Shown: piece after piece, positions 47,708 to 64,000 of the stretch
Position numbering within the stretch: the first letter of the stretch is position 1
How the letters are laid out: each line of letters begins with the position of its first letter
Assembly: GCA_964456285.1 (NCBI GenBank)
Contig: CAYWBC010000002.1
Span: 16,999 to 80,998, forward strand
Reading direction: 5' to 3'
From: an uncultured Bacteroidales bacterium
GTDB taxonomy: Bacteria; Bacteroidota; Bacteroidia; Bacteroidales; UBA10428
Length of the DNA stretch: 64,000 bases
Notes under the pieces: generated by a model
What the model was told of the DNA's origin: nothing
Database searches by the model: none
Seen by the model: the letters and a program-made list of their open reading frames with translations, nothing else
Position numbers and translations under genes: made by a program

Positions 47708-47720
47708 AGATTACAATTTT

Positions 47721-48425
47721 ATGCAATTATTTTACGCTCCTGAACAACAAGGAGAACATTATTTTTTAAACGAGGAGGAGTCTAAGCACTGTACTAGGGT
47801 TCTTCGTCTGAGATCAGGAGATCATATTTTTCTTACAGATGGCAAGGGTAATTTGTCTGAGGGAATAATTGATACTTCAGGTAAGGGAAATATTTCTGTT
47901 AAAGTTTCAAGTACTGAAAATGAATATCAGAAAAGGAATTATTATTTGCATTTGGCAATAGCACCAACCAAAAACATTGATAGATTTGAATGGTTTCTTG
48001 AAAAGGCTACAGAAATTGGAATTGATGAGATAAGCCCAATACTTACAGATCATTCTGAGCGAAAAAAGATAAAGCTTGATCGACTTGAGAAAATAGTTAT
48101 AGCGGCAATGAAACAATCATTGAAGGCCTATAAGCCAATAGTTAATCCTTTGATAAGGTTTAGTGATTTCATAAAAGAAAAACATGGTGAAGAAGAACTG
48201 TTTATTGCACATTGCTATAAAAAAGAAAGATTTAATTTAAAAACTATTTACCATGCCGGTAAAAATAGCATTGTATTGATAGGTCCGGAAGGAGATTTTT
48301 CGGAAAGAGAAATTGATGTTGCGTTGGCTAATAATTTCAGGCCTGTAACTCTTGGTGAAAGTCGATTAAGAACTGAAACAGCCGGAATTGTAGCTTGTCA
48401 TACAATTTATCTGTTAAACCAATAA
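47721..48425 (+). CDS. rsmE: 16S rRNA (uracil1498-N3)-methyltransferase RsmE
   Basis: MQLFYAP N-terminus, PUA-like then SPOUT domain (IGPEGDFSEREI, LGESRLRTETA). Confidence 0.88.
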   Translation: MQLFYAPEQQGEHYFLNEEESKHCTRVLRLRSGDHIFLTDGKGNLSEGIIDTSGKGNISVKVSSTENEYQKRNYYLHLAIAPTKNIDRFEWFLEKATEIGIDEISPILTDHSERKKIKLDRLEKIVIAAMKQSLKAYKPIVNPLIRFSDFIKEKHGEEELFIAHCYKKERFNLKTIYHAGKNSIVLIGPEGDFSEREIDVALANNFRPVTLGESRLRTETAGIVACHTIYLLNQ

Positions 48426-48461
48426 GATTTAATAATTTTGTCAGTGTACTAATCCAACAAT

Positions 48462-48905
48462 ATGAAAAAAGAAAAAGCAGTTCAAAAATTCATGAAGGGA
48501 TACAATTGCGCGCAATCCATAGTATCAACTTTTAGTGAAGAATTAGGCCTAATGGAAAAACAAGCTTTGATGATAACTACTGGTTTGGGAGCAGGGATTA
48601 ATTATCAGGGTAAAACCTGCGGTGCAGTTCTTGGAGCTTATATTATTCTGGGTTTAAGATATGGAGTAGAAAATGCTGATGACCAGGAAGGAAAGTTAAA
48701 ACTTCGAAAGCTGCTGGATCAGTTTTCGAAAGATTTTTCTGAAAAATATAATTCTCTCAACTGTAAGGACATTCTTGGTTTGGATGTGAGTAAAGAGGAA
48801 GAGCTTGAGGAGTTGCGTGAGAAAAATGCTTTTAGAGAAGTTTGTCCCAAGGTTGTAGAAACTGCAGCAATAATTGTCGATAAGATGTTAAAAGATTCTA
48901 AATAA
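48462..48905 (+). CDS. C_GCAxxG_C_C family (seleno)protein-like redox protein
   Basis: YNCAQSI, GKTCGAVLGA, later Cys residues (LNCKD, EVCPKV), as in the family signature. Confidence 0.75.
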   Translation: MKKEKAVQKFMKGYNCAQSIVSTFSEELGLMEKQALMITTGLGAGINYQGKTCGAVLGAYIILGLRYGVENADDQEGKLKLRKLLDQFSKDFSEKYNSLNCKDILGLDVSKEEELEELREKNAFREVCPKVVETAAIIVDKMLKDSK

Positions 48906-49021
48906 AACAGCAGTCATTTATTTCGAAAGATGCTTGTTTTTACTAAATTTCTTAAACAAAAATCCTTTATTAAATGTTTTTAGTACTTTCTAAATGTTAA
49001 ACTAAAGAAATTTTAATAATT

Positions 49022-49840
49022 ATGGGAAAATTTAACGAATTCAGTAGTTATTTGATGGACTTACTGGAAAAGTTTGGGCCAAAAGTTCTGTTGGCAATTG
49101 TTGTTCTTGTTGCTGGTTTATGGGTAATCAGGATTATTTCAAAATTCTTAAAAAGAGCCTTTAATAAATCAAATCTTGATGAATCTTTAAGACCTTTTCT
49201 AACTAGTTTCTTATCTGTCTTGCTGAAAGTACTATTGGTTATTTCAGTTGCAGGGATGATCGGCATTGAAATGACTTCATTTATTGCTATCCTTGCTGCT
49301 GCCGGACTCGCTGTGGGTATGGCATTATCAGGAACGTTGCAAAATTTTGCGGGTGGTGTTATGCTGCTTATTTTTAAACCTTTTAAAGTAGGTGATTATA
49401 TCGAGGCACAGGGTCATTCTGGAATTGTAACGGAAATTCAGATATTCAATACACTTTTAAAGACTCCTGATAATAAAAAGGTGATTATTCCCAATGGAGG
49501 ACTCTCAACAGGTTCTATGATCAATTATACTGCAGAGGATACTCGAAGGGTAGATATGACTTTTGGTATAGGTTACCAGGATGATATAGATAAGGCGAAA
49601 GGTATACTTCAGGGAATAATTGATGGAAATGATTTAATATATAATGAACCTGAACCATTTGTTGGTATTATGGAACTTTCTGATAGTTCAGTGAATTTGG
49701 TCGTAAGGGTTTGGACAAAAACATCTGATTATTGGAATGTTTATTTTTATATGCAGGAAACTGTGAAGAAAACATTCGATAAAGAAGGCATTTCTATACC
49801 TTTTCCACAGAGCGATGTACATCTTTATCAAATCAAATAA
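49022..49840 (+). CDS. MscS-family mechanosensitive channel (small)
   Basis: 3 TM. FKPFKVGDYIEAQGHSGIVTEIQIFNTLLKTPDNKKVIIPNG. Confidence 0.85.
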   Translation: MGKFNEFSSYLMDLLEKFGPKVLLAIVVLVAGLWVIRIISKFLKRAFNKSNLDESLRPFLTSFLSVLLKVLLVISVAGMIGIEMTSFIAILAAAGLAVGMALSGTLQNFAGGVMLLIFKPFKVGDYIEAQGHSGIVTEIQIFNTLLKTPDNKKVIIPNGGLSTGSMINYTAEDTRRVDMTFGIGYQDDIDKAKGILQGIIDGNDLIYNEPEPFVGIMELSDSSVNLVVRVWTKTSDYWNVYFYMQETVKKTFDKEGISIPFPQSDVHLYQIK

Positions 49841-49850
49841 GAATGTTATT

Positions 49851-50780
49851 ATGAAAAAAGTAATTCTACTAGTTACGGTTTGTACTCTTTTTTTCGGGAT
49901 TCAAGTACATTCTCAAAGTGCTGACTCAGTAGCATCCATTGTAACTGCAAAAGATACTGCATGGAAAGCAGGAGGGAATGTAACAGCCACTTTTTCTCAG
50001 GCTTATTTTGATAATTGGGCATCTGGAGGTGAAAACTCTTTTGCATTAAATAGCCGGGTAAATCTCTTTTCAAGATACCAGCTAAACAAAGTATTGTGGG
50101 AAAATAATCTTGATTTGGCTTACGGTTTCACAAAACAAAAAAGTACAGATTTTAGAAAGAACGATGACTTATTTGATTTCACTTCTCAATTTGGATATAA
50201 AGCTTCAAAAAAATGGTATTATAGTGCCATTATCAATATTAAGAGCCAATTTTCCACAGGATATGATTATGCAAGTGAACCTGCTGATACTATATCCGGT
50301 TTTTTGTCTCCCTTAAATGTGAATCTGGCAGTCGGTATGGATTACAAGCCGAATGAGCAGTTTTCAGTCTTTCTTTCGCCTGTAAATCTGAAATTGATAT
50401 ATGTGAATGATACTGCATTTAGTACAAGAAATTCTATCGATGCTGGCAAAAATCTTAGAACTGAATTTGGATTCATTGCTAAAATCAAATACCAGAAAGA
50501 AATCATAGAAAATATTAACCTGATGACAAAACTCGATATTTTTTACAATTACCTCGAGACTAATATAACATTGTTTGATGGTAGTTCTAGATTTAAATCT
50601 CCTTATATAAGCTGGGAAGTACTTATAAATATGAAAGTTTTTACAGCACTTTCCATTAATTTAAATACTCATCTGATTTACGACGAAAACTTCAGACAAC
50701 TCGATGAGGAAGGCAATGCAAAAAATCCAAAAGTACAGTTTAAGGAAGTTTTTGGAGTTGGTCTGGCGGTGAAATTCTAG
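49851..50780 (+). CDS. DUF3078-type outer-membrane protein
   Basis: Signal peptide from the ATG at 49851 (MKKVILLVTV). W.AGGN....FSQAYFDNWASGGENS pattern. Beta-barrel-like, C-terminal F. Confidence 0.65.
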   Translation: MKKVILLVTVCTLFFGIQVHSQSADSVASIVTAKDTAWKAGGNVTATFSQAYFDNWASGGENSFALNSRVNLFSRYQLNKVLWENNLDLAYGFTKQKSTDFRKNDDLFDFTSQFGYKASKKWYYSAIINIKSQFSTGYDYASEPADTISGFLSPLNVNLAVGMDYKPNEQFSVFLSPVNLKLIYVNDTAFSTRNSIDAGKNLRTEFGFIAKIKYQKEIIENINLMTKLDIFYNYLETNITLFDGSSRFKSPYISWEVLINMKVFTALSINLNTHLIYDENFRQLDEEGNAKNPKVQFKEVFGVGLAVKF

Positions 50781-51102: not shown

Positions 51103-54100
51103 ATGATTAAACGAATTCTATTATCTATGCTTGCTTTTTTGTTCATTAGTTTAACAGCTAATGCACAACAAGTTAGTATTAACGGTATTGTTACCGGGGA
51201 AGACGGAGAAGGCCTTCCTGGTGCTACAGTAATGGTTAAAGGAACATCTAATGGAGTTACTACCAATGCAGATGGTGCATACTTCATTACCGTGGAAGGT
51301 GTTGAAAGCCCGGTACTGGTAATCTCTTACATTGGCTATTTGTCTGAAGAAATAGCCGTAGACAATCAGACTGAAATTAATGTTACGATGTCTCTTGACA
51401 TGCAATCTCTTGATGAGATTGTTGTTGTAGGATATGGCACCCAGAAGAAAAGTCTGGTAACAGGTGCTATTAGTAAAGTAAGTTCTGAAGAATTGCAAAA
51501 GACTCCGGCATTAAGAGTTGAACAGGCATTGATTGGAAAAGCTGCCGGCGTATATATTGCGAATATGGAAGGTTCTCCGGGGGGTGGACTTTCAGTGAGG
51601 ATCCGTGGAACAGGAACTAATTCGAATTCCGATCCTCTATACATTGTCGATGGTATGTCAACAGGTGGGATTGAATTCTTAAATCCAGGAGATATTGAGT
51701 CCATTGAGATATTGAAGGATGCTGCTTCAGCAGCGATTTATGGAGCAGAAGCTGCTAACGGAGTGGTTCTGATTACTACAAAATCGGGTAAGATAGGTGG
51801 CGAATCTACTGTTAGTTATGAATTTTATTATGGGGTTCAGAATCCCTGGAAGAAGATAGAAGTACTTGATGCAGAGGGTTATATAACCGCACAACGTGAA
51901 ATGTGGCGAAATGCCGGGGGGAACATGAGCAGTTTGAATGAACTACTTGCTGATTCAACCGATTATGAATTTAATACCAACTGGCTTGACCAGGTAACAA
52001 GGAAAAATGCACCATTTCAGAATCATCAGTTAAGTATTACCGGAGGGAATGAAAAAATGCACTATAGTACATCCCTAAATTATTATGATCAGGATGGAAT
52101 GATAGGGGATGGCCGTTCCAACTTCAGGCGTTATTCAGGAAGATTCAATGGTACATATCATGTAAAGGACTGGTTGCATGTTGGAAACCGTATCAATATA
52201 ATTCAAACCGAAAGAATAGGAATTGGTGAAAATGATGTGTTTGGTGGAGTAGTATCTCTGGCAACCCAGCTCGATCCCTTGTTTCCTGTTCGGGATCCTG
52301 CAATGGATACGATAGACGGTGGTGCTCATCGGGGGTGGGGGCAATCCAGCATACTTTCAGCTGAGTATGTCAATCCTTTGGGTTCACTGGATATAGATAA
52401 TGCAAAAACTGTTACACAAAAAGTATTTGGTGACGTATGGATCGAAGCCGAAATTATAAATGGGCTGAAAATCAAAACAGATCTATTTGTTGAACAGAGC
52501 TATGTAAATTATTCCAATTGGGAACCGCATTATATATTCACCGGTACGGCGCAAAATCAAACTTCAAGTGTTACCAAACGTGTTGATCAATATCCGGGCA
52601 TACAATGGGATAATATCATAACTTACGATAAGAGTTTTGGCAAACATAATATTGGAGCAGTATTGGGTATGTCAGCCAGGGTAAATAAGGCAAATCGTCT
52701 GGAAGCAACAGGTACAGATATGTTTCTGGAAAATGAAAACTTTGCTCATATTTTCGCAACAACATCTGAGACTCAAACAGCTACCGATCAGAACACTGAA
52801 GATTGGAATGTTATGCCAAGAGAAAAGCGCTTGATGTCTTATTTTGGACGGTTAAACTACAATTATGATGAACGCTATCTGTTAACCCTGATTGTTCGTC
52901 GCGATGGATCAAATAAATTAGCAAGCGGAAACAGATTTCAAACATTTCCATCAGTATCTGCAGGATGGATTATTTCCAATGAAAATTTCTGGGGTGTTGC
53001 TCCCATTAACTTTTTAAAAATCAGGGCCAGCTGGGGACAAAATGGAAATATCGAATCGCTGGATTACTTTCAGTATGTTTCGCTCATAGAAGTTGGAGTA
53101 TGGAATTATTATTTTGATGATGTACTTTCCACAGGAGCAGTTCCTTCAACCCTAAGTAATAGAGACCTTATTTGGGAAACCAGTGAACAAATCGATTTAG
53201 GTATTGATATTCGTTTGCTGGCTAATAGACTTTCATTAAGCGCCGACTATTACGATAAGAGAACAAAAGATCTGCTTGTGCAAGCTTCAACTCCTTATTT
53301 AACAGGAAATAACAATCCCTGGATCAATGCGGGAGAGGTGCAGAATAAAGGATTCGAAATTGAATTTAGATACAACGACATGATCGGTGAATTTAAATAT
53401 GGTGTAAATATTAATTTCGCTACAAATAAAAATGAAGTACTTTCCTATGGTAATGAAAGTGGATCCATTAATGGAGTTGGCTATGGAGTGGAAGGAAGAC
53501 AAATGACCAAGTTTGAAGTTGGATATCCTATAGGTTATTTCTATGGTTTTGAAAGTGATGGAATATTCCAGAATGAGGAAGAGGTTCTGGCACATACAAC
53601 CAATGGAGTTGTATTGCAGCCCAGAGCTGAACCTGGCGATGTAAGGTTTGTCGATGTAAATGGCGATAGTCTAATAAATGACAATGACAGGACAATGATA
53701 GGTAATCCACATCCAAAATTCTTATATGGTCTGGGACTGGATTTTGAATACAAAGGATTTGATCTGAGTTTATTCTTCCAGGGAACAGCTGGAAATGATA
53801 TCTATAATGCCCGAAGGCGATATGATGTAAATAATGTAAATCTGGAAAAATGGATATATGATGAGCGCTGGCATGGTGAAGGTACATCAAACGAGTTCCC
53901 TCGTCTATATAGTGGCGATCCGAATGGCAATTGGAACAGGAGCGATATTATGATCGAGGATGCTTCATATCTTCGATTAAGAGATTTGCGCCTCGGGTAC
54001 ACAATACCCAATAAGATTACTGAAAAAGCAAAAATTAGTCAACTCTACTTCTACGTTCAGGGAACAAACTTACTAACCTTTACAAAGAAGAGTTTCCACG

Positions 54101-54210
54101 GATCGAATCCTGATATTGGAGCTATTTGGGGTAACCTGGGTTCCGGTCTGGATTTTGGTTTCTATCCGGCGGCTAAAACTTATCAGATTGGTGCCAAAAT
54201 TACATTTTAA
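51103..54210 (+). CDS. susC: SusC/RagA-family TonB-dependent outer-membrane transporter
   Basis: Signal peptide. CarboxypepD_reg domain (INGIVTGEDGEGLPGATVMVKGTSNGVTTNADGAY), TonB box DEIVVVGYG, plug plus 22-strand barrel. Ends ...KITF. Confidence 0.93.
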   Translation: MIKRILLSMLAFLFISLTANAQQVSINGIVTGEDGEGLPGATVMVKGTSNGVTTNADGAYFITVEGVESPVLVISYIGYLSEEIAVDNQTEINVTMSLDMQSLDEIVVVGYGTQKKSLVTGAISKVSSEELQKTPALRVEQALIGKAAGVYIANMEGSPGGGLSVRIRGTGTNSNSDPLYIVDGMSTGGIEFLNPGDIESIEILKDAASAAIYGAEAANGVVLITTKSGKIGGESTVSYEFYYGVQNPWKKIEVLDAEGYITAQREMWRNAGGNMSSLNELLADSTDYEFNTNWLDQVTRKNAPFQNHQLSITGGNEKMHYSTSLNYYDQDGMIGDGRSNFRRYSGRFNGTYHVKDWLHVGNRINIIQTERIGIGENDVFGGVVSLATQLDPLFPVRDPAMDTIDGGAHRGWGQSSILSAEYVNPLGSLDIDNAKTVTQKVFGDVWIEAEIINGLKIKTDLFVEQSYVNYSNWEPHYIFTGTAQNQTSSVTKRVDQYPGIQWDNIITYDKSFGKHNIGAVLGMSARVNKANRLEATGTDMFLENENFAHIFATTSETQTATDQNTEDWNVMPREKRLMSYFGRLNYNYDERYLLTLIVRRDGSNKLASGNRFQTFPSVSAGWIISNENFWGVAPINFLKIRASWGQNGNIESLDYFQYVSLIEVGVWNYYFDDVLSTGAVPSTLSNRDLIWETSEQIDLGIDIRLLANRLSLSADYYDKRTKDLLVQASTPYLTGNNNPWINAGEVQNKGFEIEFRYNDMIGEFKYGVNINFATNKNEVLSYGNESGSINGVGYGVEGRQMTKFEVGYPIGYFYGFESDGIFQNEEEVLAHTTNGVVLQPRAEPGDVRFVDVNGDSLINDNDRTMIGNPHPKFLYGLGLDFEYKGFDLSLFFQGTAGNDIYNARRRYDVNNVNLEKWIYDERWHGEGTSNEFPRLYSGDPNGNWNRSDIMIEDASYLRLRDLRLGYTIPNKITEKAKISQLYFYVQGTNLLTFTKKSFHGSNPDIGAIWGNLGSGLDFGFYPAAKTYQIGAKITF

Positions 54211-54221
54211 AGTATAGCAAC

Positions 54222-55841
54222 ATGAAAAATTTATTTAAAGTAAAATACATATTAGTAGCTGCATTGGCATTCATAGTCTTGTCATGCGGTGAAGACTGGT
54301 TAGAAACTGAACCGCAGGGTTTGGTTCTTGAATCGAATTTTTATCAGACTGAAGACGATGCATTTGCTGCACTAACAGCTGCTTATGATCCTTTGGAATG
54401 GGACTATATGAGTGGTCTTGACGGTGCATATAATCCATTCTTTATGATCATGAATATTTCTTCCGATGATACGGAGAAAGGAGGAGATACTCCTACTGAT
54501 CAGGCCAATATGGAACAGTTTAATGATTATAATCTAAATCCTGATAATGAGATGATCCGGGGTTTATGGGTTAAATATGCCAGAGGGATTTATCGTTGTA
54601 ACCTGGTTCTTGAAAATACCTCTGATGGTTTTAGCACTGCAGCCACAATTAAAGCTGAAGCACAAACTTTAAGGGCTTATTATTTCTTTGATGCTGTTCG
54701 AATATGGGGGGACTATCCATTACTTGATCATGTATTAGGTCCAGACGAGTATTATTCAACAGGAAGAGCTCCGAAAAGAGAAATATTTGATTTGATAGTG
54801 AATGACTTAAAAGCCGCAATTAGTTCAGGAGCACTTAAAAGATTAACTCAGGTTCCGGGAGGACGTGTTACTTTAGGTACTGCACATGCTCTTCTAGGGA
54901 AAGTATATCTGTATATGGCCTCTCCATATTATGCATATAGCGATGAGGACTACTACCAATTGGCAGCAAATGAATTTGCATCGGTCATACAATTGGGCGA
55001 TTATGAATTAATTGATAATTATGCCGATGTAAATGATCCACGCCTGGGACAGAATACCAACGAAGCTGTATTTGAAATTCAACACAGTGCTCGCTCAGAA
55101 TGGAGTGATTGGAATTATGCTACTCCGGGAGAGGGTAACTTTACAGCTACTATGAGCGGTATCAGAACAGGTGGAACTCTCGGCCATCCTATATATAGCA
55201 ATGGATGGTGTTTTAATTTACCAAATCAGAACAATGTAGATGCTTACATTGCAATGGAAGATGATATTAGATTCAGCGCTAACATTATTACCAGCTTTCC
55301 TGTTGAGGTGGGTGGTGTGACAATACCTTCCGATTTGGGTGTTGCTACTGATACCTCAGGACGCGATGTGACCACTGATATCGGCGTTAATTTTGCTATG
55401 GGATATCAACATACTGGCTATTGGGTGAAGAAGTATGCCATTTATGCTGAATTAATTCCAAGTGTTGGTGATCAGTTCAATAATAATCCCAATAACATGG
55501 TTGCAATACGTTATTCTGATGTATTGCTTATGCATGCTGAAGCATTGGTAAGTGGGGCTTCCGATCCATTAGGTGCAACAGCAGTTGATTATGTAAATGA
55601 GGTTCGTGATCGTGTAGATCTTGATCTGCTAAGTTCAGTTGATCTGGATGCTATCCTGGCTGAAAGACGATTGGAATTGGATCACATGGGACATCGATGG
55701 TTTGATATGGTTCGATTGAATCGCGCAGTTACAGTTTTTGGACCACAAGGTTTTACTGTTGGTCATGAAGTATTTCCAATTCCCCGACAGGAGATTGATA
55801 ATACCAGGGGAGCCCTTGAACAAAATGAGGCGTATAAATAG
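54222..55841 (+). CDS. susD: SusD/RagB-family glycan-binding lipoprotein
   Basis: Lipobox VLSCGEDW. 11-nt gap after susC. SusD-like TPR-rich helical core, C-terminal R.ELD..GHRWFD..R. Confidence 0.9.
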   Translation: MKNLFKVKYILVAALAFIVLSCGEDWLETEPQGLVLESNFYQTEDDAFAALTAAYDPLEWDYMSGLDGAYNPFFMIMNISSDDTEKGGDTPTDQANMEQFNDYNLNPDNEMIRGLWVKYARGIYRCNLVLENTSDGFSTAATIKAEAQTLRAYYFFDAVRIWGDYPLLDHVLGPDEYYSTGRAPKREIFDLIVNDLKAAISSGALKRLTQVPGGRVTLGTAHALLGKVYLYMASPYYAYSDEDYYQLAANEFASVIQLGDYELIDNYADVNDPRLGQNTNEAVFEIQHSARSEWSDWNYATPGEGNFTATMSGIRTGGTLGHPIYSNGWCFNLPNQNNVDAYIAMEDDIRFSANIITSFPVEVGGVTIPSDLGVATDTSGRDVTTDIGVNFAMGYQHTGYWVKKYAIYAELIPSVGDQFNNNPNNMVAIRYSDVLLMHAEALVSGASDPLGATAVDYVNEVRDRVDLDLLSSVDLDAILAERRLELDHMGHRWFDMVRLNRAVTVFGPQGFTVGHEVFPIPRQEIDNTRGALEQNEAYK

Positions 55842-55916
55842 TCAAATCAATAATATGATTGCTGATTATAAAAATGCCTGATTATAAATTAGCGATAATA
55901 ATAAGATTTAAGATCA

Positions 55917-55959
55917 AGATTCCTGATTCGGGTAAGCATGTGGCTTACCTGAATAAGGA
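55917..55959 (+). other. long imperfect hairpin between susD and the MFS gene (terminator/attenuator candidate)
   Basis: ATTCCTGATTCGGGTAAGC / GCTTACCTGAATAAGGAAT: perfect 7-bp core GGTAAGC/GCTTACC, 5-nt loop, 10 of 12 outer positions pair. No strong T run. Confidence 0.4.
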
Positions 55960-56148
55960 ATTTACTTAAAAATTATTTGAATAAAATAATAGTGGTATGA
56001 ACTTGTTCATTTGAATTCAATTGAAAATTAAATGATATTAATATCCAGTTAGATGATTGTAATATAGAATCCGGTAATTTAAAAGTCTGGATCGAAGGCA
56101 GATAAATAACCGATTTGGAATATATTTTAGTATTAAATAACTGATTAC

Positions 56149-57714
56149 ATGAAAAATAATAACTCACTCTTTCATTCCTTTCTAATAGTTTTCATCGTAG
56201 CACTTGGTGGATTCTTAATGGGTTTTGATGCATCAGTAATTTCTGGTGTTGTAGAGTTTATTGGGCCGCAATTCGAATTAACAAAACTAGAATTGGGTTG
56301 GGCAGTCAGTTGCCTGACATTAACAGCTACACTGGCCATGATCATTTCCGGACCCATCTCTGATAGAATAGGTAGAAAACTGGTTTTAAAATATGCGGCA
56401 ATATTGTATTTTATTTCGGCAGTGTTTTCTGCGCTTGCTCCTTCATTTATAAGTCTTGTTATTGCTCGTATGATTGGAGGAATTGGCGTTGGAGCCTCAC
56501 TGATAATTGCACCCATGTATATAGCTGAAATTGCTCCTCCAAGGCTTCGGGGAAGGATGGTTTCTTTTAATCAGTTGAATATTGTTATAGGTATTTCCGT
56601 TGCATTTTTCACAAACTATTTAATACTTCAATTGGGAAAATCTGATGCCGGCTGGGCAAAATCTCTAATGTTTGAAGCCTATAACTGGCGATGGATGTTA
56701 GGATTGGAGGCACTTCCTGCTATTTTGTACTTCTTCTTTTTATTCATTGTACCAGAAAGTCCAAGATGGTTGGCAATGAAAGGTTTTGAAGACAGGGCGC
56801 TGGATATTATGATTAAAATGAGTAGTGAAGAACAAGCCAGGAAGGAATACAAGGAAATTAAAGCCAGCATATCAAGTAATACTAAGAAAGAGAAAGTTTC
56901 AATTGCTGAACTATTCAAACCAGCTATGAAACTTGTTCTTACCATTGGTATCGTGATAGCGATCCTGCAACAAATTACAGGTATCAATGCTGTTTTCTTT
57001 TATGCACCTATGATATTCAAGCAGACGGGAATAGGAACAGATGCTTCTTTTGTTCAGGCTATAATAGTAGGTTTAACAAATTTAATTTTTACAGTTGTTG
57101 CCATTTTATTTGTTGATCGCCTGGGGAGAAAACCTTTGCTTGCCTTTGGTGTTTCAGGCATTGTTATTTGTATGTTTCTTTTGGCATATTCTTTCAATAC
57201 GGCTACCTACGAGCTATCTGTTGAATCTGTTTCAAATCTTTCTGAAATTACTGATCTGGCCGTAATTGGCCAGTTGCAGGGACAAACATTCACTTCTGAT
57301 ATTGCTTTTAAGGATGCACTTATACAAGTTTTAGGGGACAATGTAGCCAGCGAACATCAGGGAGAAATAATTGCACAGGCAATAAGCATTAATCCATGGC
57401 TTGTTCTGATCGGTATTATTGGATTTGTTGCTTCATTTGCTGTTTCTTTGGGACCGGTAATGTGGATTCTCTTTTCAGAACTATTTCCAAATCGTTTAAG
57501 AGGTCTTGCTATTTCCCTGGCAGGATTTGTGAATTCAGGGATAAGCTTCACAGTTCAGCTTATGTTTCCATGGGAACTTTCAAATATTGGCAATGCCGGA
57601 ACATTCCTGATTTATGGAATATTTGGTCTGGCAGGTCTTATTTTCATACTTATTTATCTTCCTGAAACAAAGGGTAAATCACTGGAGGAACTGGAAAAAG
57701 TATTAATTAGTTAA
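56149..57714 (+). CDS. MFS sugar porter (sugar:H+ symporter family)
   Basis: 12-TM layout. GRK motifs, PESPRWL, PETKGKSLEELE. ~65-aa soluble insertion (ELSVESVSNL...AISINP) in the C-terminal half. Confidence 0.9.
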   Translation: MKNNNSLFHSFLIVFIVALGGFLMGFDASVISGVVEFIGPQFELTKLELGWAVSCLTLTATLAMIISGPISDRIGRKLVLKYAAILYFISAVFSALAPSFISLVIARMIGGIGVGASLIIAPMYIAEIAPPRLRGRMVSFNQLNIVIGISVAFFTNYLILQLGKSDAGWAKSLMFEAYNWRWMLGLEALPAILYFFFLFIVPESPRWLAMKGFEDRALDIMIKMSSEEQARKEYKEIKASISSNTKKEKVSIAELFKPAMKLVLTIGIVIAILQQITGINAVFFYAPMIFKQTGIGTDASFVQAIIVGLTNLIFTVVAILFVDRLGRKPLLAFGVSGIVICMFLLAYSFNTATYELSVESVSNLSEITDLAVIGQLQGQTFTSDIAFKDALIQVLGDNVASEHQGEIIAQAISINPWLVLIGIIGFVASFAVSLGPVMWILFSELFPNRLRGLAISLAGFVNSGISFTVQLMFPWELSNIGNAGTFLIYGIFGLAGLIFILIYLPETKGKSLEELEKVLIS

Positions 57715-57726
57715 TTTATCTCAAAG

Positions 57727-59028
57727 ATGAAAAATACAATATTATTGATAAGTCTGCTATTGGTTATGGTTGATTGTACTTCTTTAAAAAGAAAAAAGAA
57801 GGATGTACCTGTAAAAGTTACTTTAGAACAGGTTGAAGGAAAATACCGACTATTTGTTGATGGTGAAGAATTTTATGTGAAAGGAGCAGGATGTGAATTT
57901 GGGAACATCGAAGCACTAGGAGAGTATGGTGCCAATTCATTCAGAACTTGGAGAATTGAAAATGGTGAAAGTACTGCAGAAGAAATACTGGAACGAGCAC
58001 AAAATACAGGCTTGTTGGTTTTAATGGGTCTGGATGTTGGACGTGAACGGCATGGCTTTGATTACAATGATTCTGTATGGGTCAAGCAACAATACGATTC
58101 CATACAGGCAAGGGTAACGAGAATAAAAGATCATCCTGCGCTGCTCGGATGGGCAATTGGCAATGAAATCAATCTTGACGCTGAAAATTTAAAAGTCTTT
58201 GATGCTGTGAACGATATATCGAAAATGATTCATGAAATTGATCCTAATCACGTAACAACTACAACTCTGTCCGGTATTGATAAAAGAGTAGTGGACTATC
58301 TTAAAGAACATTGCACAGACATTGATTTCTTATCAATTCAAATGTACGGTGATATTGTAAACCTTCAACAGCGCATTGACGATGCTGGCTGGGAAGGTCC
58401 TTATATGGTGACTGAATGGGGTGCAACCGGACATTGGGAAGTTCCGCTTACTGCCTGGGATGTGGCTATTGAACAAACCAGTAAAGAAAAAGCCAATGCC
58501 CTTATCGAAAGGTATAAAGTGGCCATTGCAGCAGATTCGAAAAATTGTCTGGGCTCATATGTCTTTCTTTGGGGTCAAAAGCAGGAGCGGACACCAACCT
58601 GGTATGGAATGTTTTTAGAAAATGATTATAAGACAGAAATGGTCGATGCTATGCATTTCCTCTGGAATGGTAAATGGCCGGAAAATAGATGTCCTACTCT
58701 TGATTCTTTCAAAATTGATAATCAAACAGCCTACGATAATATTCAGTTTGAACTGGGTGATGAGTTTGTTGCAAATGTATATGCCCACGACTATCAAAAT
58801 GATTCTCTTGTATACAAATGGGAAATAATTCCTGAGAGTACTAATTTGGGTCAGGGTGGTGATTTTGAAAGCCGGCCTGAGTCTGTTTTTTTAATGGAAG
58901 GAGAAGCAACAGCTAAACTTCAGGTTCCTGAAAAAACAGGTGCTTATCGTCTCTTCATTTATGTTTTTGATGGCAACAAGCAGGCTGCAACAGCCAATAT
59001 TCCATTCCTTGTCATGGAAAAAATATGA
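57727..59028 (+). CDS. clan GH-A TIM-barrel glycoside hydrolase lipoprotein with C-terminal beta-sandwich (GH158-like endo-beta-1,3-glucanase candidate)
   Basis: Lipobox VMVDCTS. FYVKGAGC entry strand. Candidate acid/base in WAIGNEINL (E147) and nucleophile in MVTEWGATG (E230). ~90-aa C-terminal domain. Family assignment is tentative. Confidence 0.55.
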   Translation: MKNTILLISLLLVMVDCTSLKRKKKDVPVKVTLEQVEGKYRLFVDGEEFYVKGAGCEFGNIEALGEYGANSFRTWRIENGESTAEEILERAQNTGLLVLMGLDVGRERHGFDYNDSVWVKQQYDSIQARVTRIKDHPALLGWAIGNEINLDAENLKVFDAVNDISKMIHEIDPNHVTTTTLSGIDKRVVDYLKEHCTDIDFLSIQMYGDIVNLQQRIDDAGWEGPYMVTEWGATGHWEVPLTAWDVAIEQTSKEKANALIERYKVAIAADSKNCLGSYVFLWGQKQERTPTWYGMFLENDYKTEMVDAMHFLWNGKWPENRCPTLDSFKIDNQTAYDNIQFELGDEFVANVYAHDYQNDSLVYKWEIIPESTNLGQGGDFESRPESVFLMEGEATAKLQVPEKTGAYRLFIYVFDGNKQAATANIPFLVMEKI

Positions 59029-59071: not shown

Positions 59072-61339
59072 ATGAGAAGTAAGGCTAAGATATTGGGATT
59101 AATATTTCTGTCAGGACTGGTAATTTTTGCTTGCAATAAGGAGGATTCGCAAGATCCGGATAAACTTATATACCAAAAAGTAGACAGCATAATTTCATTA
59201 ATGACACTGGAAGAAAAGGCAGGACAAATGCTTAATCTGGGTCTTCCTGCATTGCTTACAGGTGAATTCTATTCCACTCGCGATACTTTGGTATTCGACT
59301 CAGCAAAAATCAACCATCTTTTAGTGAAATGTGGAGCAGGCTCGGTTCAGAATCTTGGCAATTATCCGCTTACACCTGATGAGTGGCGATACTATATCTC
59401 ATCTATTCAGGATATAGTTAAAGAACGTACAAGGTTAAAAATTCCAATACTTTATGGAATTGATGCAGTTCACGGAGCAAATTATACAGCTGGATCGGTA
59501 ATGATGCCACACCAGATAAATATTGCCGCTACCTTTGATTCATCATTGGCCCGAATAGCAGGTGAGATCACCGCTTATGAGATGAAAGCCAGCGCTATTC
59601 CCTGGAACTTTTGTCCAAACTTCGATGTCGCCCGTAATCCATTGTGGGGCAGAATTTATGAAACTTTCGGAGAAGATGTTTATTTGACCACTACAATGGG
59701 TAAAGCAATGCTTGAAGGAATGATGGGAAGTAATCCTGCTGACTGGAATAAAGTAGTTGCATCGGCCAAACATTATATAGCATATGGGGCTTCTGTTACT
59801 GGAAAGGACAGATCATTCATCATGATGCCTGAATCGTATATCAGGCAAATTATGTTGCCTCCGTTTGAAGAAGCACTTAAGAGTGGATTGTTGTCTGTTA
59901 TGGTTTCATCAGGTTCATTAAATGGTACGCCTACCCATGTCGATCATTATTTCTTAACCAGGGTATTGAAAGAAGAACTTGGGTTTAAAGGTGTAATAAT
60001 TAGCGATTGGGGCGAAATTGACAATCTTATTAGTATCCACAGGGTTGCGAAAGATGAACGTGAAGCTGTTAAAATGAGTGTACTGGCTGGAATAGATATT
60101 TGCATGGAACCATACGATGCCAGTTTTTTTGAATACCTTGTCGATTTGGTGAATTCAGGTGAAATTCCGATTTCAAGAATTGATGATGCGGTTCGCCGAA
60201 TATTATTTGTAAAATACAAATCGGGGATTTTCGATGATGTTATGTTTGAAAAACACAGCTATAAAAAATTTGCATCAAAAGAATTTGACTCATTAAATTT
60301 ACATATTGCCAGGGAGAGCATTACTTTATTAAAAAACTCTAGCGAGATATTGCCTTTGGCGAAGAACAAGAAAATATTAGTTGCCGGAGTAGCAGGGAAT
60401 TCCTTAAACTATTTGAATAATGGGTGGTCTAGGACCTGGTTAGGAGAAGATACAGCATATAACGATACGGAGAAATTTACGATACTTGAAGCTGTGAAAG
60501 CCGAAATTGGGAGCAACAATGTTTTGTATTCGCAAGGAACTGACTACCTTAATGAAATAGACATCGATGATGCTCTTAAAAAGGCAAATCAGGTTGATTA
60601 TATAATTGCTTGTGTTGGTGAGAAACCAGCAACTGAGGTGCCAAGCAATATTGAAGATCTTGAATTGCCCGAATCCCAGTTAAAATTAGTAAGAAAACTT
60701 GCTGAAACCGGCAAACCAGTTATCCTGGTTATGACACAAGGAAGACCCAGAATTATTCGTAAAATAGAGCCGCTTGTGCAGGCTGTGATAATGGCCTATG
60801 TGCCGGGCAACGAAGGAGGAATTGCTATATCCGATGTTATTTTTGGAAATGTGAATCCCAGTGGAAAATTGCCTTATACTTACCCTAAATATTCTGGGTC
60901 AATCAATATGTACGATCATCAGCATGAAAATGATTTTGGATTTATGGGATATTCGCCGCAATATGAATTTGGATACGGTTTAAGCTATACAAGTTTTAAA
61001 TATGGCGATATTGTACTTAATACCGATTCTGTAAAAGCGGGTGATAAAATCACTTGTAGTATTGATATAACAAATACTGGCAATGTGATGGGAAAAGAGG
61101 CAGTTCTGCTTTTTGTCACCGATGAGGTAGCCACAAAAAGTCCGGTTGTAAAACAACTCAGACGATATTCTAAGATAAGCCTGAAGCCAAACGAATCCAA
61201 AGTGGTATTTTTTGAACTTGATTTAAAGGACATGATGTTTGTTGATAATTCGAATAAATGGGTTTATGAGCCAGGATATTTTACAATTGGTATTGGGGAT
61301 AAAAAAGCCAGCTTTTATTTACAAGAAGCTGATTTCTGA
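59072..61339 (+). CDS. GH3 beta-glucosidase / exo-beta-glucanase lipoprotein
   Basis: Lipobox VIFACNKE. GH3 N-terminal domain with nucleophile motif GVIISDWGE. C-terminal alpha/beta and Fn3-like domains. Confidence 0.93.
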   Translation: MRSKAKILGLIFLSGLVIFACNKEDSQDPDKLIYQKVDSIISLMTLEEKAGQMLNLGLPALLTGEFYSTRDTLVFDSAKINHLLVKCGAGSVQNLGNYPLTPDEWRYYISSIQDIVKERTRLKIPILYGIDAVHGANYTAGSVMMPHQINIAATFDSSLARIAGEITAYEMKASAIPWNFCPNFDVARNPLWGRIYETFGEDVYLTTTMGKAMLEGMMGSNPADWNKVVASAKHYIAYGASVTGKDRSFIMMPESYIRQIMLPPFEEALKSGLLSVMVSSGSLNGTPTHVDHYFLTRVLKEELGFKGVIISDWGEIDNLISIHRVAKDEREAVKMSVLAGIDICMEPYDASFFEYLVDLVNSGEIPISRIDDAVRRILFVKYKSGIFDDVMFEKHSYKKFASKEFDSLNLHIARESITLLKNSSEILPLAKNKKILVAGVAGNSLNYLNNGWSRTWLGEDTAYNDTEKFTILEAVKAEIGSNNVLYSQGTDYLNEIDIDDALKKANQVDYIIACVGEKPATEVPSNIEDLELPESQLKLVRKLAETGKPVILVMTQGRPRIIRKIEPLVQAVIMAYVPGNEGGIAISDVIFGNVNPSGKLPYTYPKYSGSINMYDHQHENDFGFMGYSPQYEFGYGLSYTSFKYGDIVLNTDSVKAGDKITCSIDITNTGNVMGKEAVLLFVTDEVATKSPVVKQLRRYSKISLKPNESKVVFFELDLKDMMFVDNSNKWVYEPGYFTIGIGDKKASFYLQEADF

Positions 61340-61353
61340 AAATCAATACGGAA

Positions 61354-64000
61354 ATGCAAAAAAAATACAAAACATATATTGGGAATTCAGCTTCGGAAAA
61401 TGTTCAGAAAAAAATAACAGGAGAGATTATAGACCATGATGGAGTTGGTTTCTATAAAATCAGCAATTATGATAAAATGCCCCCGTTCCTTATGTCCCTG
61501 GTGGGTGCCGGCAATCACTGGATGTTTATTTCCAGCAACGGCGCTCTAACTGCTGGTCGACGTGAGCCAACAAATGCACTATTTCCATATACTACCGATG
61601 ATAAAATAACCGACAGTGCTGATGTAACAGGCAGCAAATCTATCTTTCGAATTCGCCTGGAAGAAAAAGAATTCTTATGGGAACCATTCTCATCTCGTTA
61701 TGAAGGACTTTATAATGCAGAGCGCAACATTTACAAAAGTATTTTTGGCAATATCCTGATTTTTGAAGAAATAAATTATACGCTCGGTATCACTTTTTCC
61801 TACCAATGGCAGTTTAGCAATGCATTTGGTTTTGTTAAAACATCCAAACTAAGGAATATGAAAAAGACAGATCAGGAAATTACTTTGTTGGATGGTATAC
61901 AGAACATATTACCCTACGGGGTTGATGAAGGAATGCAAATGAGGTATAGTACCCTCGTGGATGCCTACAAGAAAAATGAACTGGATGTTTCATCCGGAAT
62001 GGGTATCTATTACCTGAGTTCTATACCTACAGACAGGGCTGAACCGAGTGAAGGATTAAAGTCAACAACCATATGGACTGTTGGATTAGAAAAAACAAAA
62101 AAGCTGTTATCATCCGATCAGGTTAAAGCATTCCGTTTCGGTGAAGAAATTATTCAGGAAGAAAACATTAGAGGTCGACGGGGAGCTTATTTTGTTTCTA
62201 AAAAGGCAATTATTAAATCGAGTGAAGAATTGAGTTGGATGACAGTTGCTGAACTGGAGCAGGATCTGGTAGCAATTCATCAACTTCAAAATCAACTTAA
62301 ATCTTCATCACAACTAATGACAGGACTGGTTAGCGACCTGGAATTAGGGACAAAACAACTTGTTGAGTTAGTAGCAATGGCAGATGGGTTACAACTGGTA
62401 GAGGATGATCTGGTATCTACAAGACATTTTTCAAATGTTTTGTTTAATGTAATGAGGGGAGGCATTTTTCAAAATCATTACAAGATCAATAGGACTAAAC
62501 TCACAGAATACTTATATCACTTCAACAAAAAAATTGCAGAACTTGTTAAGGATAAGATAATATTTACTTTACCGGAAGAGATCGAATATGGTGATTTAAT
62601 TTCATTTGCTGAAGATATCGGCAATGCAGATATACTGAGATTATGCAGTGAATACCTTCCTCTTTCATTTGGAAGAAGACATGGAGATCCAAGTCGTCCC
62701 TGGAATAAGTTTTACATTCAAAATTTCAATGATGATGGTAGTCGAGAGATAGATTACCAGGGCAATTGGCGTGATATTTTTCAAAACTGGGAAGCCCTCG
62801 CATTTAGTTACCCTGAATTTGCTGAGAGTATGATTTGCAGGTTTTTAAATGCTTCAACAGCAGATGGCTACAATCCCTATCGTATTACGAAAGATGGAAT
62901 AGACTGGGAAGAAATTGACCCTGATGATCCCTGGTCAAATATTGGATACTGGGGCGATCATCAGATTATATATTTACTAAAGCTCCTGGAATTATCAGAA
63001 AATTTTCATCCTGACAGGCTTGTTAAATGGTTATCAGAGGATATGTTTGTTTATTCGAATGTACCTTACCGAATAAAAAACTATCCTGAAAAACTCGAAG
63101 ATCCTCGCAATACTATATTATTTGATAAAGAAGAAGCAGACAAAATAAGTAGGTGTGTTATGCAAAACGGAGCGGATGGAAAGTTAATTTGGCTGAATGG
63201 GGAAACTTACAAGGTGAACATGACAGAAAAGCTTTTAGTACCCTTGTTGGCTAAACTTAGCAATTTTGTGGCTGATGGTGGTATCTGGCTTTGCAATCAA
63301 CGTCCTGAGTGGAACGATGCAAACAATGCTATGGTAGGCAATGGTTTGTCTATGGTCACTGTGTATCATTTGCGGAGGCACATTGCCTTTTTACAAAATC
63401 TGTTCTGTAAAATTGAAAATGATAGTGTTGCTATTTCAGAGGAGGTATCCGGATGGATAAAAAACACATACAGGATCTTTTCTGACAATCAGATAATCCT
63501 GGAAAATATGATAAATTCTTCCCCAAGAAGAAAATTACTTGATGCACTGGGTTATGCGGTTGACAAGTATCAGACCTCGATTTACAGGAAGGGTTTCAAA
63601 GGAAAAAAATCATCTTTAAAAATAAAAGAACTTACTGATTTTCTTTCTCTTGTATTGCAATACATTGATTCAACAATTGCTCATAATCAGAGGGAGGATA
63701 AGTTATTCCATTCCTATAACCTGATGAGATTAGAGGAAGATGGAGGCATCTCCATTGTTAACTTGCATGAAATGTTAGAAGGTCAGGTAGCTATTTTAAA
63801 TAGTGGAGTACTTGACGGAAAACAATCACTGGATGTTCTTGATGCATTAAAAAATAGTGATATGTATAGCTCTGATCAGAAGAGCTATACCTTGTATCCG
63901 AATAGGAACCTGCCTCGTTTTCTGGAAAAAAACCGAGTGCCACTATCTGACATTTCTTCCCTTGTTTTGGTCAATGAATGTTTGAAAAGAAAAGATTTCA
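61354..64000 (+). CDS. large cytoplasmic protein, 3' end outside window; possible (alpha/alpha)6 GH94-clan-like glycoside phosphorylase
   Basis: My own translation is stop-free for 882 codons from the ATG at 61354 (14 nt after the GH3 stop) to the window edge. Absent from the supplied track. No signal peptide. Motifs GRRHGDPSRPWNKF, GYWGDHQIIYLLKLLE, RPEWNDANNAMVGNG. Confidence 0.8.
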   Translation, partial: MQKKYKTYIGNSASENVQKKITGEIIDHDGVGFYKISNYDKMPPFLMSLVGAGNHWMFISSNGALTAGRREPTNALFPYTTDDKITDSADVTGSKSIFRIRLEEKEFLWEPFSSRYEGLYNAERNIYKSIFGNILIFEEINYTLGITFSYQWQFSNAFGFVKTSKLRNMKKTDQEITLLDGIQNILPYGVDEGMQMRYSTLVDAYKKNELDVSSGMGIYYLSSIPTDRAEPSEGLKSTTIWTVGLEKTKKLLSSDQVKAFRFGEEIIQEENIRGRRGAYFVSKKAIIKSSEELSWMTVAELEQDLVAIHQLQNQLKSSSQLMTGLVSDLELGTKQLVELVAMADGLQLVEDDLVSTRHFSNVLFNVMRGGIFQNHYKINRTKLTEYLYHFNKKIAELVKDKIIFTLPEEIEYGDLISFAEDIGNADILRLCSEYLPLSFGRRHGDPSRPWNKFYIQNFNDDGSREIDYQGNWRDIFQNWEALAFSYPEFAESMICRFLNASTADGYNPYRITKDGIDWEEIDPDDPWSNIGYWGDHQIIYLLKLLELSENFHPDRLVKWLSEDMFVYSNVPYRIKNYPEKLEDPRNTILFDKEEADKISRCVMQNGADGKLIWLNGETYKVNMTEKLLVPLLAKLSNFVADGGIWLCNQRPEWNDANNAMVGNGLSMVTVYHLRRHIAFLQNLFCKIENDSVAISEEVSGWIKNTYRIFSDNQIILENMINSSPRRKLLDALGYAVDKYQTSIYRKGFKGKKSSLKIKELTDFLSLVLQYIDSTIAHNQREDKLFHSYNLMRLEEDGGISIVNLHEMLEGQVAILNSGVLDGKQSLDVLDALKNSDMYSSDQKSYTLYPNRNLPRFLEKNRVPLSDISSLVLVNECLKRKDF

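Follow-up and report, generated by a model that had tools for sequence, protein, structure and literature searches.

The long open frame that runs off the end of the window (by which we mean the whole 64,000-nucleotide stretch of Bacteroidales DNA analysed here) encodes an ordinary GH149 beta-1,3-glucan phosphorylase, an enzyme of a known kind and not a new one. We are highly confident that it represents the N-terminal 882 of the 1158 residues of a cytoplasmic laminari-oligosaccharide phosphorylase of this family, and that the gene is the last co-directional member of a Bacteroidales beta-1,3-glucan locus. The protein belongs to GH149 and has its fold, retains the active-site residues of the family, has no apparent signal peptide and lies in a conserved gene order. 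Its activity is probably that of the assayed homologues Pro_7066 (49% identical) and EgP1, from which it is transferred by analogy. Both of these have been assayed as beta-1,3-glucan phosphorylases, from DP2 upward, and their Pi-dependent, reversible cleavage of beta-1,3-gluco-oligosaccharides (DP of at least 2) to alpha-Glc-1-P is known (PMC5827456, PMC6484121).

A gene truncated at the window's edge

On translation, positions 61354-63999 of the forward strand, on which all features described here lie, yield an uninterrupted run of 882 codons whose product opens with MQKKYKTYIGNSASENVQKK and closes with NECLKRKDF. The other five frames over the same interval contain 47-83 stops each, with no open run longer than 64 codons. 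Going upstream, the frame first meets a stop at 61330, after which the earliest start codon is 61354; the same start is used by an NCBI protein of 1158 aa (P0001), to which the frame is identical (100%) over residues 1-882. This identity puts the frame far beyond chance, and because of it the gene can be taken as intact beyond the window, the end of which (61354-64000 holding codons 1-882 of 1158, or 76% of the gene) cuts it about 830 nt short of the predicted stop.

The list of open reading frames has no forward-strand entry after the GH3 frame at 59072-61339. The original prediction had recognised the untracked frame, had placed its ATG 14 nt past the GH3 stop, as we also measure, and had blamed the omission on the lack of a stop within the window; this is correct, since the program that made the list states that it leaves out any frame that continues past the source's end. 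Tracks that discard edge-crossing frames in this way can conceal a large gene.

Family, fold and active site

Membership of GH149 was judged by whether the whole protein scores above the curated cut-off (1150 bits) of a family-specific model. Against the NCBIfam equivalog NF058639.1 (“GH149_beta_1_3”) the full-length protein scores 1619.6 bits, covering model positions 2-1133 of 1134, and the window fragment by itself reaches 1240.1 bits. A PDB search matched the crystallised enzyme Pro_7066 (6HQ6/6HQ8) at 919 bits with the fragment and 1218.7 bits at full length; the alignment is collinear over residues 9-1151, with 49% identity across 893 aligned columns. An AF2 model of the full-length protein (pLDDT 83.6, pTM 0.86) gave 6HQ8/6HQ6 as the top Foldseek match (TM 0.94/0.96, rmsd 2.5 A, 1139 columns), followed by GH161 (TM 0.65/0.72) and then by a GH94 laminaribiose phosphorylase (0.57/0.71). 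The suspicion that the frame encodes an (alpha/alpha)6 phosphorylase of the GH94/GH149/GH161 clan (GH-Q) is thus borne out both by family model and by fold, and the family can be named as GH149. The pLDDT of the model falls below 50 exactly at the active-site loops (residues 442-444, 650-661, 942-955 and 1022-1030), so that active-site geometry is not confidently modelled.

The two related families are clearly more distant. GH161 (PapP; PDB 9GY9, 9QQK) shares the clan, the overall fold and the motifs RxHGD, RD, GYWxDH and WND, but the full-length protein has only partial phmmer matches to it (E ~1e-13, residues 487-846, 15-16% identity), with TM 0.63-0.65 when normalised to the query (best pair 0.65/0.72). 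GH161 enzymes also act only from DP 3 upward, and glucose does not serve them as acceptor (PMC6484121). The GH94 laminaribiose, cellobiose and chitobiose phosphorylases (e.g. PsLBP, PDB 6GGY) have in common with the present protein the clan, the (alpha/alpha)6 domain, the WND loop and inverting phosphorolysis, but phmmer against the PDB matched no GH94 chain at E <= 10, and structural comparison gives 9-12% identity and a query-normalised TM of 0.43-0.57. GH94 enzymes do not possess the insertions Dom 1 and Dom 2, and those named act on disaccharides (PMC6771811).

Pro_7066, by contrast with these, shares with the full-length protein both its four-domain layout and the Dom 1 and Dom 2 insertions (PMC5827456, PMC6771811). 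Residues were mapped to it with SEQRES positions equal to the paper numbering + 19, and conservation was assessed in 40 homologues of 48-75% identity. An N-terminal beta-sandwich domain (approximately aa 1-304; 61354-62265) corresponds to Pro_7066 residues 1-303, with beta strands spanning residues 22 to 303 of the AF2 model, and is joined by a helical linker (approximately aa 305-342; 62266-62379; Pro_7066 residues 304-341; modelled helices 305-315 and 318-342) to the (alpha/alpha)6 catalytic domain. The alignment and the Foldseek match place the first part of that domain, with Dom 1 and the start of Dom 2, at aa 343-882 (62380-64000); its remainder and the C-terminal jelly roll fall outside the window. 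The corresponding boundaries in Pro_7066 are 342-1045 for the catalytic domain, 370-428 for Dom 1 and 852-938 for Dom 2 (PMC6771811), and the alignment is collinear through both insertions, the length of Dom 1 differing by 4 residues. The longer motif spacing remarked on in the original prediction is a trait of GH149 as a whole, owed to its extra domains Dom 1 and Dom 2, and does not set this gene apart.

The active-site residues named in the literature (R473, D474, W653, N654, D655, E952 and H960) are identical to those of Pro_7066 and invariant in all 40 homologues. Three motifs had been picked out beforehand, GRRHGDPSRPWNKF (aa 440-453; 62671-62712), GYWGDHQIIYLLKLLE (aa 531-546; 62944-62991) and RPEWNDANNAMVGNG (63301-63345); all are present at these positions and are invariant family motifs, although two of them had been misread. 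The first, in which R441-N451 are invariant, was taken for the Arg/Asp sugar-phosphate motif, but its aligned counterpart in a GH161 structure is SRKHGDLERDYN and, as read from that alignment, it is a clan-level motif. The genuine Arg-Asp pair lies about 20 residues further on, at R473-D474 (62770-62775) within GNWRDIFQNWE (G470-E480 invariant), and is equivalent to R470-D471 of Pro_7066, which recognises the sugar 1-phosphate (PMC6771811). The second motif, with G531-Q537 invariant, aligns with GYWSDHW of GH161. The third covers the catalytic-loop residues W653-N654-D655 (63310-63318), which align with W651-N652-D653 of Pro_7066 in a stretch (Q649-A659) that is again invariant. It is the Asp of this W-N-D that serves as catalytic residue in GH149 (D653 in Pro_7066; PMC6771811 section 3.2), and D655 is the predicted catalytic acid here.

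It had been proposed that a Glu replaces this Asp and that the protein belongs to a GH94-clan family that is new or has diverged strongly, a reading we consider almost certainly wrong. A Glu does precede the Trp (RPEWND, as against the DWND given for GH94 in the original prediction), and a Pfam scan of the window fragment returned no match even at E <= 10. The Glu, however, is E652, directly before W653 and itself invariant among the GH149 homologues (n=40), and the supposed substitution arises from mis-registration, the catalytic Asp being present after W-N. The silence of Pfam reflects the lack of a matching model for GH149 and is no sign of divergence, given the NCBIfam equivalog score of 1620 bits; a missing Pfam match can make an ordinary CAZyme seem new. 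Together with the end-to-end collinear alignment to Pro_7066, the invariance of the site residues and a fold matching that of GH149 (TM 0.94-0.96), this score refutes the proposal, and homologues are in any case abundant (at least 8000 database proteins and 580 or more genome loci), the best genome-scan match (70% identical) being in a Bacteroidales MAG.

E952 and H960 lie in YEGLGSIYWHM, past the window's end (from nt 64204), and are seen only in the identical database protein. They correspond to the active-site Glu E951 and the phosphate-recognising His H959 of Pro_7066 (PMC6771811), and their invariance bears on whether the protein might instead be a hydrolase, or else a pseudogene remnant without activity. 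The GH number of the family and the truncation of the gene in the window, where only 76% of it is found and no stop codon, might suggest as much. Against this stand the invariant phosphate-recognising His and other site residues, a database protein that is uninterrupted to 1158 aa and aligns at its C-terminus to the end of Pro_7066, and the fact that both assayed GH149 enzymes are phosphorylases (PMC5827456, PMC6484121); we regard either outcome as very improbable.

No signal peptide is apparent in the phosphorylase, as had been anticipated: the best 12-residue window within the first 56 aa has a Kyte-Doolittle hydrophobicity of 1.28, compared with 2.66-3.07 by the same measure for the SusC, SusD, GH158 and GH3 proteins encoded upstream. 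This suggests a cytoplasmic location.

A laminarin-type locus

The gene lies at the end of a run on one strand that qualifies as a polysaccharide utilisation locus (PUL), with adjacent susC and susD genes and beta-1,3-glucan-active CAZymes. The run opens with a SusC-like TonB-dependent transporter (51103-54210; TIGR04056 892 bits; Pfam Plug, TonB_dep_Rec_b-barrel (beta-barrel) and CarbopepD_reg_2), followed after 11 nt by a SusD-like lipoprotein (54222-55841; Pfam SusD_RagB and SusD-like_3; lipobox LSC) and, after a further 307 nt, by a sugar-porter-family MFS transporter of the inner membrane (56149-57714; Pfam Sugar_tr 378 bits; TIGR00879 369.7 bits against a cut-off of 237.8). Next, 12 nt downstream, is a lipoprotein homologue of GH158 endo-beta-1,3-glucanases (57727-59028; PDB 9ORO, a GH158 enzyme, E = 1.8e-89; 6PAL, E = 9e-81; lipobox VDC). 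This 433-aa protein was also considered as GH17-like on the grounds of weak Pfam matches (Glyco_hydro_2_C, Glyco_hydro_72) and the literature pattern, an assignment that was dropped when the PDB search gave GH158. A lipoprotein GH3 beta-glucosidase (59072-61339; Pfam Glyco_hydro_3, Glyco_hydro_3_C and Fn3-like; lipobox FAC) begins 43 nt further on and scores 466 bits, under the cut-off, against the NCBIfam BglX-like model; 14 nt separate it from the GH149 gene.

The order SusC-SusD-(GH3)-MFS-GH158-GH3-GH149 recurs in the five closest relatives (L001, L003, L081, L082 and L083), in all of which GH149 ends the co-directional run and is followed by a convergent MFS_2 transporter. The claim that the gene closes the PUL holds in the sense that it is the last co-directional gene, but the convergent transporter comes after it. 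Scans for sigma-70 promoters (45 matches against 47.7 expected from shuffles) and for intrinsic terminators (6 against 7.9) are uninformative for Bacteroidota and stand at chance level, so that co-transcription of GH3 and GH149 is suggested by the 14-nt gap and the synteny.

Bacteroidota laminarin PULs are known to carry GH149 together with GH3, GH16, GH17, GH30 and GH158, examples being those of Formosa sp. Hel1_33_131, Formosa agariphila KMM3901, Muricauda, Polaribacter and Aurantivirga (PMC6246565, PMC13188888, PMC10108472, bioRxiv 10.64898/2026.01.10.698779). The present locus resembles them in having GH149 within a SusC/SusD locus alongside GH3, GH158 and MFS genes, with beta-1,3-glucan as the target. 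It differs in that the window contains no GH16, GH17 or GH30 gene, nor a regulator adjoining the PUL, whether of the BguR/LuxR type beside SusC or of another kind; in that its MFS transporter and glucanase are separate genes, unlike the MFS-GH17 fusion of Formosa; and in that its closest relatives are Bacteroidales MAGs, in contrast to the marine Flavobacteriia. Laminarin-type loci with GH149 have been described since 2018 and are already known. The finding carries little weight beyond correct annotation and opens no new question, the GH158-GH3-GH149 block with a convergent MFS_2 in anaerobic-type Bacteroidales being one more laminarin-locus configuration.

In the most probable pathway, laminarin-type glucan would be cut by the lipoprotein GH158 endo-beta-1,3-glucanase, the fragments passing through SusC/SusD into the periplasm, where the lipoprotein GH3 would trim them, and glucose and short oligosaccharides would enter the cytoplasm through MFS carriers. 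The GH149 enzyme would then use inorganic phosphate to release non-reducing-end glucose units as alpha-glucose-1-phosphate, presumably by inversion, with the WND-loop residue D655 acting as general acid, the -1 glucose being held by R473-D474 and E952 and the phosphate by H960. Phosphorolysis of this kind would save one ATP per bond compared with hydrolysis followed by hexokinase. The location of each enzyme, and the transporter that supplies the substrate, are likewise only probable. A sugar porter is indeed present in the locus, as TIGR00879 and Sugar_tr confirm, but its role in oligosaccharide import, as originally envisaged, is less apparent: the protein is most similar to the XylE/GlcP monosaccharide carriers, so that an oligosaccharide route into the cytoplasm is no more than proposed.

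The surface site and substrate preference

The principal difference from Pro_7066, a protein probably of Bacteroidota origin (PMC5827456), concerns the surface site at which that enzyme binds laminarihexaose, most of which is not kept. Only two of its eight residues are identical in the full-length protein (K831 and E994): K831, E838, Y841, E982, E990, Y993, E994 and R1062 of Pro_7066 are represented here by K, S, K, G, D, N, E and K, respectively. Two of the six changes are conservative, and both stacking tyrosines are replaced (Y841 to K, Y993 to N). The surface site is not a defining feature of GH149 and, according to the Pro_7066 literature, is poorly conserved in sequences less than 60% identical to that enzyme, so that its loss is common and not special. 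Its near absence does mean that chain-length behaviour may differ from that of Pro_7066.

Since the clade lacks this site and is found together with GH158 and two MFS carriers, the protein might be a GH149 phosphorylase with a substrate preference unlike that of Pro_7066, being restricted to very short oligosaccharides, tolerating beta-1,6 branches or using another beta-linked disaccharide. The six altered surface residues would be consistent with this, as would an identity of only 49% to the nearest assayed enzyme and the ability of Pro_7066 itself to take disaccharide acceptors of other linkages (PMC6484121). The donor-subsite and catalytic residues are nevertheless all invariant, the equivalog cut-off is exceeded by a wide margin, the adjoining GH158 and GH3 genes and the published PUL types indicate beta-1,3-glucan, and poor conservation of the surface site is the norm at this identity; we consider a different preference quite improbable and retain beta-1,3-glucan as the likely substrate.

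Some variation in preference occurs even between the assayed enzymes. EgP1 of Euglena gracilis, the founding assayed member of GH149, has the same predicted catalytic apparatus as the present protein, but is described as eukaryotic, with a targeting peptide and a role in paramylon metabolism, and its acceptor-length preference differs from that of Pro_7066 (PMC5827456). The 65-75% identical MAG relatives of the window protein form a Bacteroidales clade that has lost both aromatic platforms of the surface site and whose compact locus combines GH158 and GH3 with two MFS genes, one of sugar-porter type and one convergent and of GPH type. That this clade constitutes a functional subtype of GH149 is conceivable but improbable; such a subtype might accept a smaller range of chain lengths (only laminaribiose or laminaritriose) or differ from both assayed enzymes in the acceptors that it tolerates.

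A GH149 gene at the window edge

The forward-strand frame from 61354 to 63999 comprises 882 codons without a stop, as the original prediction had stated, beginning MQKKYKTYIGNSASENVQKK and ending NECLKRKDF on translation, and each of the remaining five frames over this stretch is interrupted by 47-83 stops, with a longest open run of 64 codons. The closest in-frame stop upstream is at 61330 and the first start codon thereafter is the ATG at 61354, which lies 14 nt from the stop of the GH3 gene, the same gap as predicted. No forward-strand ORF was reported by the ORF lister beyond that of GH3 (59072-61339); since this tool, by its own statement, drops ORFs that run off the source, the guess that the frame had been omitted for want of a stop in the window was right. 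A large protein collection contains a 1158-residue NCBI protein (P0001, encoded on a 102,875-bp contig) that shares the start and is 100% identical across the whole fragment, so the gene is intact past the window end; the window contains 76% of it.

A Pfam scan of the frame gave no match, even at E ≤ 10. The NCBIfam equivalog NF058639.1 (“1,3-beta-D-glucan phosphorylase, GH149 family”), which has a cut-off of 1150 bits, gave 1240.1 bits for the 882-residue fragment and 1619.6 bits for full-length P0001, covering model positions 2-1133 of 1134. In a PDB sequence search the fragment matched Pro_7066, a crystallised bacterial GH149 beta-1,3-oligosaccharide phosphorylase (6HQ6/6HQ8), at 919 bits over residues 9-873 without large gaps, and P0001 matched 6HQ6 at 1218.7 bits over residues 9-1151; identity to Pro_7066 is 49% across 893 aligned columns. 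Two GH161 structures were retrieved as weak sequence matches only (E about 1e-13), and the matches to the fragment included no GH94 chain. The proposed placement in the GH94 clan (GH-Q) is upheld by the model score, the 6HQ6/6HQ8 match and the fold, and the score above cut-off selects GH149 from the three candidate families that had been named. Given the bit score of P0001 and its identity to Pro_7066, the description of the protein as a divergent or new member is wrong.

GH149 was founded in 2018 on Pro_7066 and EgP1, the Euglena gracilis enzyme (PMC5827456), both of which were assayed as beta-1,3-glucan phosphorylases active from laminaribiose upward (PMC5827456; PMC6484121). At least 8000 homologous proteins are present in the large collection at E ≤ 1e-10, and at least 580 GH149 loci, from many phyla, in species-representative genomes. 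The closest loci among the matches listed belong to Bacteroidales MAGs with 65-70% identity, the source genome not being among these representatives.

Active site, predicted fold and surface site

In Pro_7066 the catalytic loop is formed by W651-N652-D653, with D653 predicted to be catalytic; sugar 1-phosphate is recognised by the R470-D471 motif and phosphate by H959, while E951 touches the ligand bound in the donor subsite (PMC6771811). The PDB SEQRES numbering is that of PMC6771811 plus 19, which was verified on all four active-site elements in the alignments. These residues correspond to W653-N654-D655, R473-D474, H960 and E952 in P0001 and do not vary among 40 aligned homologues with 48-75% identity; E952 and H960 fall past the window end and were seen in P0001. 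The three motifs singled out in the original prediction are present exactly where it placed them, although two had been misread. The Glu assigned there to the acid position is E652 of RPEWND, located before the Trp; the catalytic Asp (D655) comes after W-N and is retained. E652 is invariant in GH149 and is therefore a family trait, not a substitution. Similarly, GRRHGDPSRPWNKF is not the Arg-Asp motif for which it was taken, as R473-D474 is located ~20 residues downstream, in GNWRDIFQNWE. The RRHGD motif within GRRHGDPSRPWNKF is nevertheless invariant in the 40 homologues and aligned to SRKHGD of GH161, and is thus a genuine clan-level motif; no role is named for it in the text of the GH149 literature searched.

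P0001 was modelled with AlphaFold2 from the alignment of 40 sequences, giving a mean pLDDT of 83.6 and a pTM of 0.86. Beta strands up to about residue 303 give way to a helical linker (305-342); the catalytic region that follows is largely helical, and the C-terminus forms a beta domain. When compared with the PDB using Foldseek, the model superimposed on the GH149 structures 6HQ8/6HQ6 with TM scores of 0.94/0.96 (rmsd 2.5 Å, 1139 columns), on GH161 structures 9GY9 and 9QQK with 0.63-0.65 by query and 0.70-0.72 by target, and on the GH94 laminaribiose phosphorylase 6GGY with 0.57/0.71, the remaining GH94 phosphorylases scoring lower. Similarity to (alpha/alpha)6 phosphorylases was therefore found by both HMM and structure, the check that the original prediction had proposed. 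Segments 442-444 and 650-661 (window 62677-62685 and 63301-63336), 942-955 and 1022-1030 have pLDDT below 50, the lowest in the model, and represent invariant loops of the active site, the WND loop among them, so the geometry of the site is deduced from sequence and not from the model. Ordering of these loops may depend on a ligand or on the dimer partner.

Pro_7066 also possesses a surface site for laminarihexaose, comprising K831, E838, Y841, E982, E990, Y993, E994 and R1062 (PMC6771811). In the alignment these positions read K, S, K, G, D, N, E and K in P0001, such that only two of the eight residues match and neither stacking tyrosine is retained. The site is already poorly conserved in GH149 sequences with less than 60% identity to Pro_7066 (PMC6771811), and its loss is therefore common variation and nothing special. 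It is improbable that the Bacteroidales clade without this site has a chain-length preference other than that of the assayed enzymes.

The locus and known laminarin PULs

The PUL context originally proposed is borne out by five upstream genes on the same strand. These encode SusC (51103-54210; TIGR04056, 892 bits) with a signal peptide, SusD (54222-55841), an XylE/GlcP-like sugar-porter MFS protein (56149-57714; TIGR00879, 369.7 bits), a 433-residue GH158 protein (57727-59028; PDB 9ORO, E = 1.8e-89; 6PAL, E = 9e-81) and GH3 (59072-61339); SusD, GH158 and GH3 have lipoprotein-type N-termini. Successive gaps from SusC to GH149 are 11, 307, 12, 43 and 14 nt. GH149 itself lacks a hydrophobic segment at its N-terminus, and Kyte-Doolittle values stay at or below 1.23 for every 19-residue window of the protein, which fits the predicted cytoplasmic location. 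A “GH17-like” label for the 433-residue protein was dropped in view of its matches to 9ORO (“Glycoside hydrolase family 158”) and 6PAL; in Pfam it gives only weak, misleading matches to the GH2 TIM barrel and GH72. The start of the MFS gene is ambiguous, homologues in otherwise near-identical loci being called as 498 residues (L081, L082) or 521 residues (L083); the window ORF is the 521-residue form and its Sugar_tr match is broken into two stretches. Of the intergenic gaps, only that between SusD and MFS (55842-56148) is long; it is AT-rich and non-coding and possibly harbours an internal promoter. Promoter and terminator scans were at chance level and uninformative.

The GH149 gene and its context are of a kind already described. 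Most Bacteroidetes GH149 genes are located in PULs with GH3 and/or GH30_1 plus GH16 and/or GH17 (PMC5827456), and the family is found in laminarin PULs of Formosa strains A and B (Unfried et al.; PMC6246565) and Muricauda (PMC13188888). Laminarin PULs of North Sea bloom MAGs are defined by GH149, GH17, GH16, GH30 and GH158 (PMC10108472), and a Formosa agariphila PUL contains GH16_3, GH17, GH30_1, GH149 and GH158 (bioRxiv 10.64898/2026.01.10.698779). Compared with these, the Bacteroidales-type host and the lack of GH16, GH17 and GH30 in the window are minor differences. Formosa possesses an MFS-GH17 fusion (PMC6246565), whereas here MFS and the glucanase GH158 are separate genes that recall it. 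Marine laminarin PULs carry a BguR/LuxR-type regulator immediately upstream of SusCD (bioRxiv 10.64898/2026.01.10.698779); in contrast, no PUL regulator adjoins SusC in the window. The four genes upstream of SusC (47700-50780) encode an RsmE-like methyltransferase, a C_GCAxxG_C_C protein, an MscS channel and a DUF3078 protein, and the sole sensor in the window with Reg_prop, Y_Y_Y and HATPase_c domains (16941-20186) is 31 kb away.

Synteny and a proposed pathway

Among the five closest related loci, L001 and L081 (GH149 70% and 75% identical) share the window's order, SusC-SusD-MFS-GH158-GH3-GH149, and L003, L082 and L083 (65-68% identical) have an extra GH3 between SusD and MFS, where L001, L081 and the window have a gap; this site points to gain or loss of GH3 among close relatives. 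The MFS-GH158 adjacency is conserved in the relatives. GH149 was predicted to close the PUL, and it does end the co-directional, operon-like run in all five loci. However, in each of them a convergent MFS_2/GPH-type transporter gene (PF13347) follows after about 100-250 nt, on the reverse strand (L001 12550-13992; L003 13721-15103; L081 13597-14889; L082 and L083 13591-14973), so the locus probably extends a little beyond the window, where an MFS_2 gene is predicted directly after GH149. Further on, L001 encodes a CBM6 protein and L003, L082 and L083 a GH9, all with T9SS sorting domains. PF13347 transporters were noted in GH149 clusters in 2018 (PMC5827456), and we infer that the MFS_2 protein is a candidate laminari-oligosaccharide importer, at least as good as the XylE/GlcP-like sugar porter favoured in the original prediction.

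Judging from the families represented, GH158, an endo-beta-1,3-glucanase family, would cut the glucan into fragments for uptake by SusC/SusD, periplasmic GH3 would trim the imported fragments and the MFS carriers would bring in glucose and short oligosaccharides. Cytoplasmic GH149 would then use phosphate to convert non-reducing-end glucose to alpha-Glc-1-P by the inverting GH-Q mechanism, and this product could enter glycolysis via phosphoglucomutase. Each bond cleaved by phosphorolysis would cost one ATP less than if it were hydrolysed and the glucose then phosphorylated.

About 4 kb upstream of the PUL, among housekeeping genes, is a forward-strand ORF of 1505 residues (42664-47181) with a signal-peptide-like N-terminus (MHSAIHCKRLFKLVFIVFLNICAVTLYAKK), for which no Pfam match at E ≤ 10 and no NCBIfam match was found. 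Other carbohydrate-related genes lie far from the PUL, also on the forward strand, and encode a pectinesterase-domain protein with C-terminal Ig domains (10834-12711) and a CBM96-containing protein (24516-25604).
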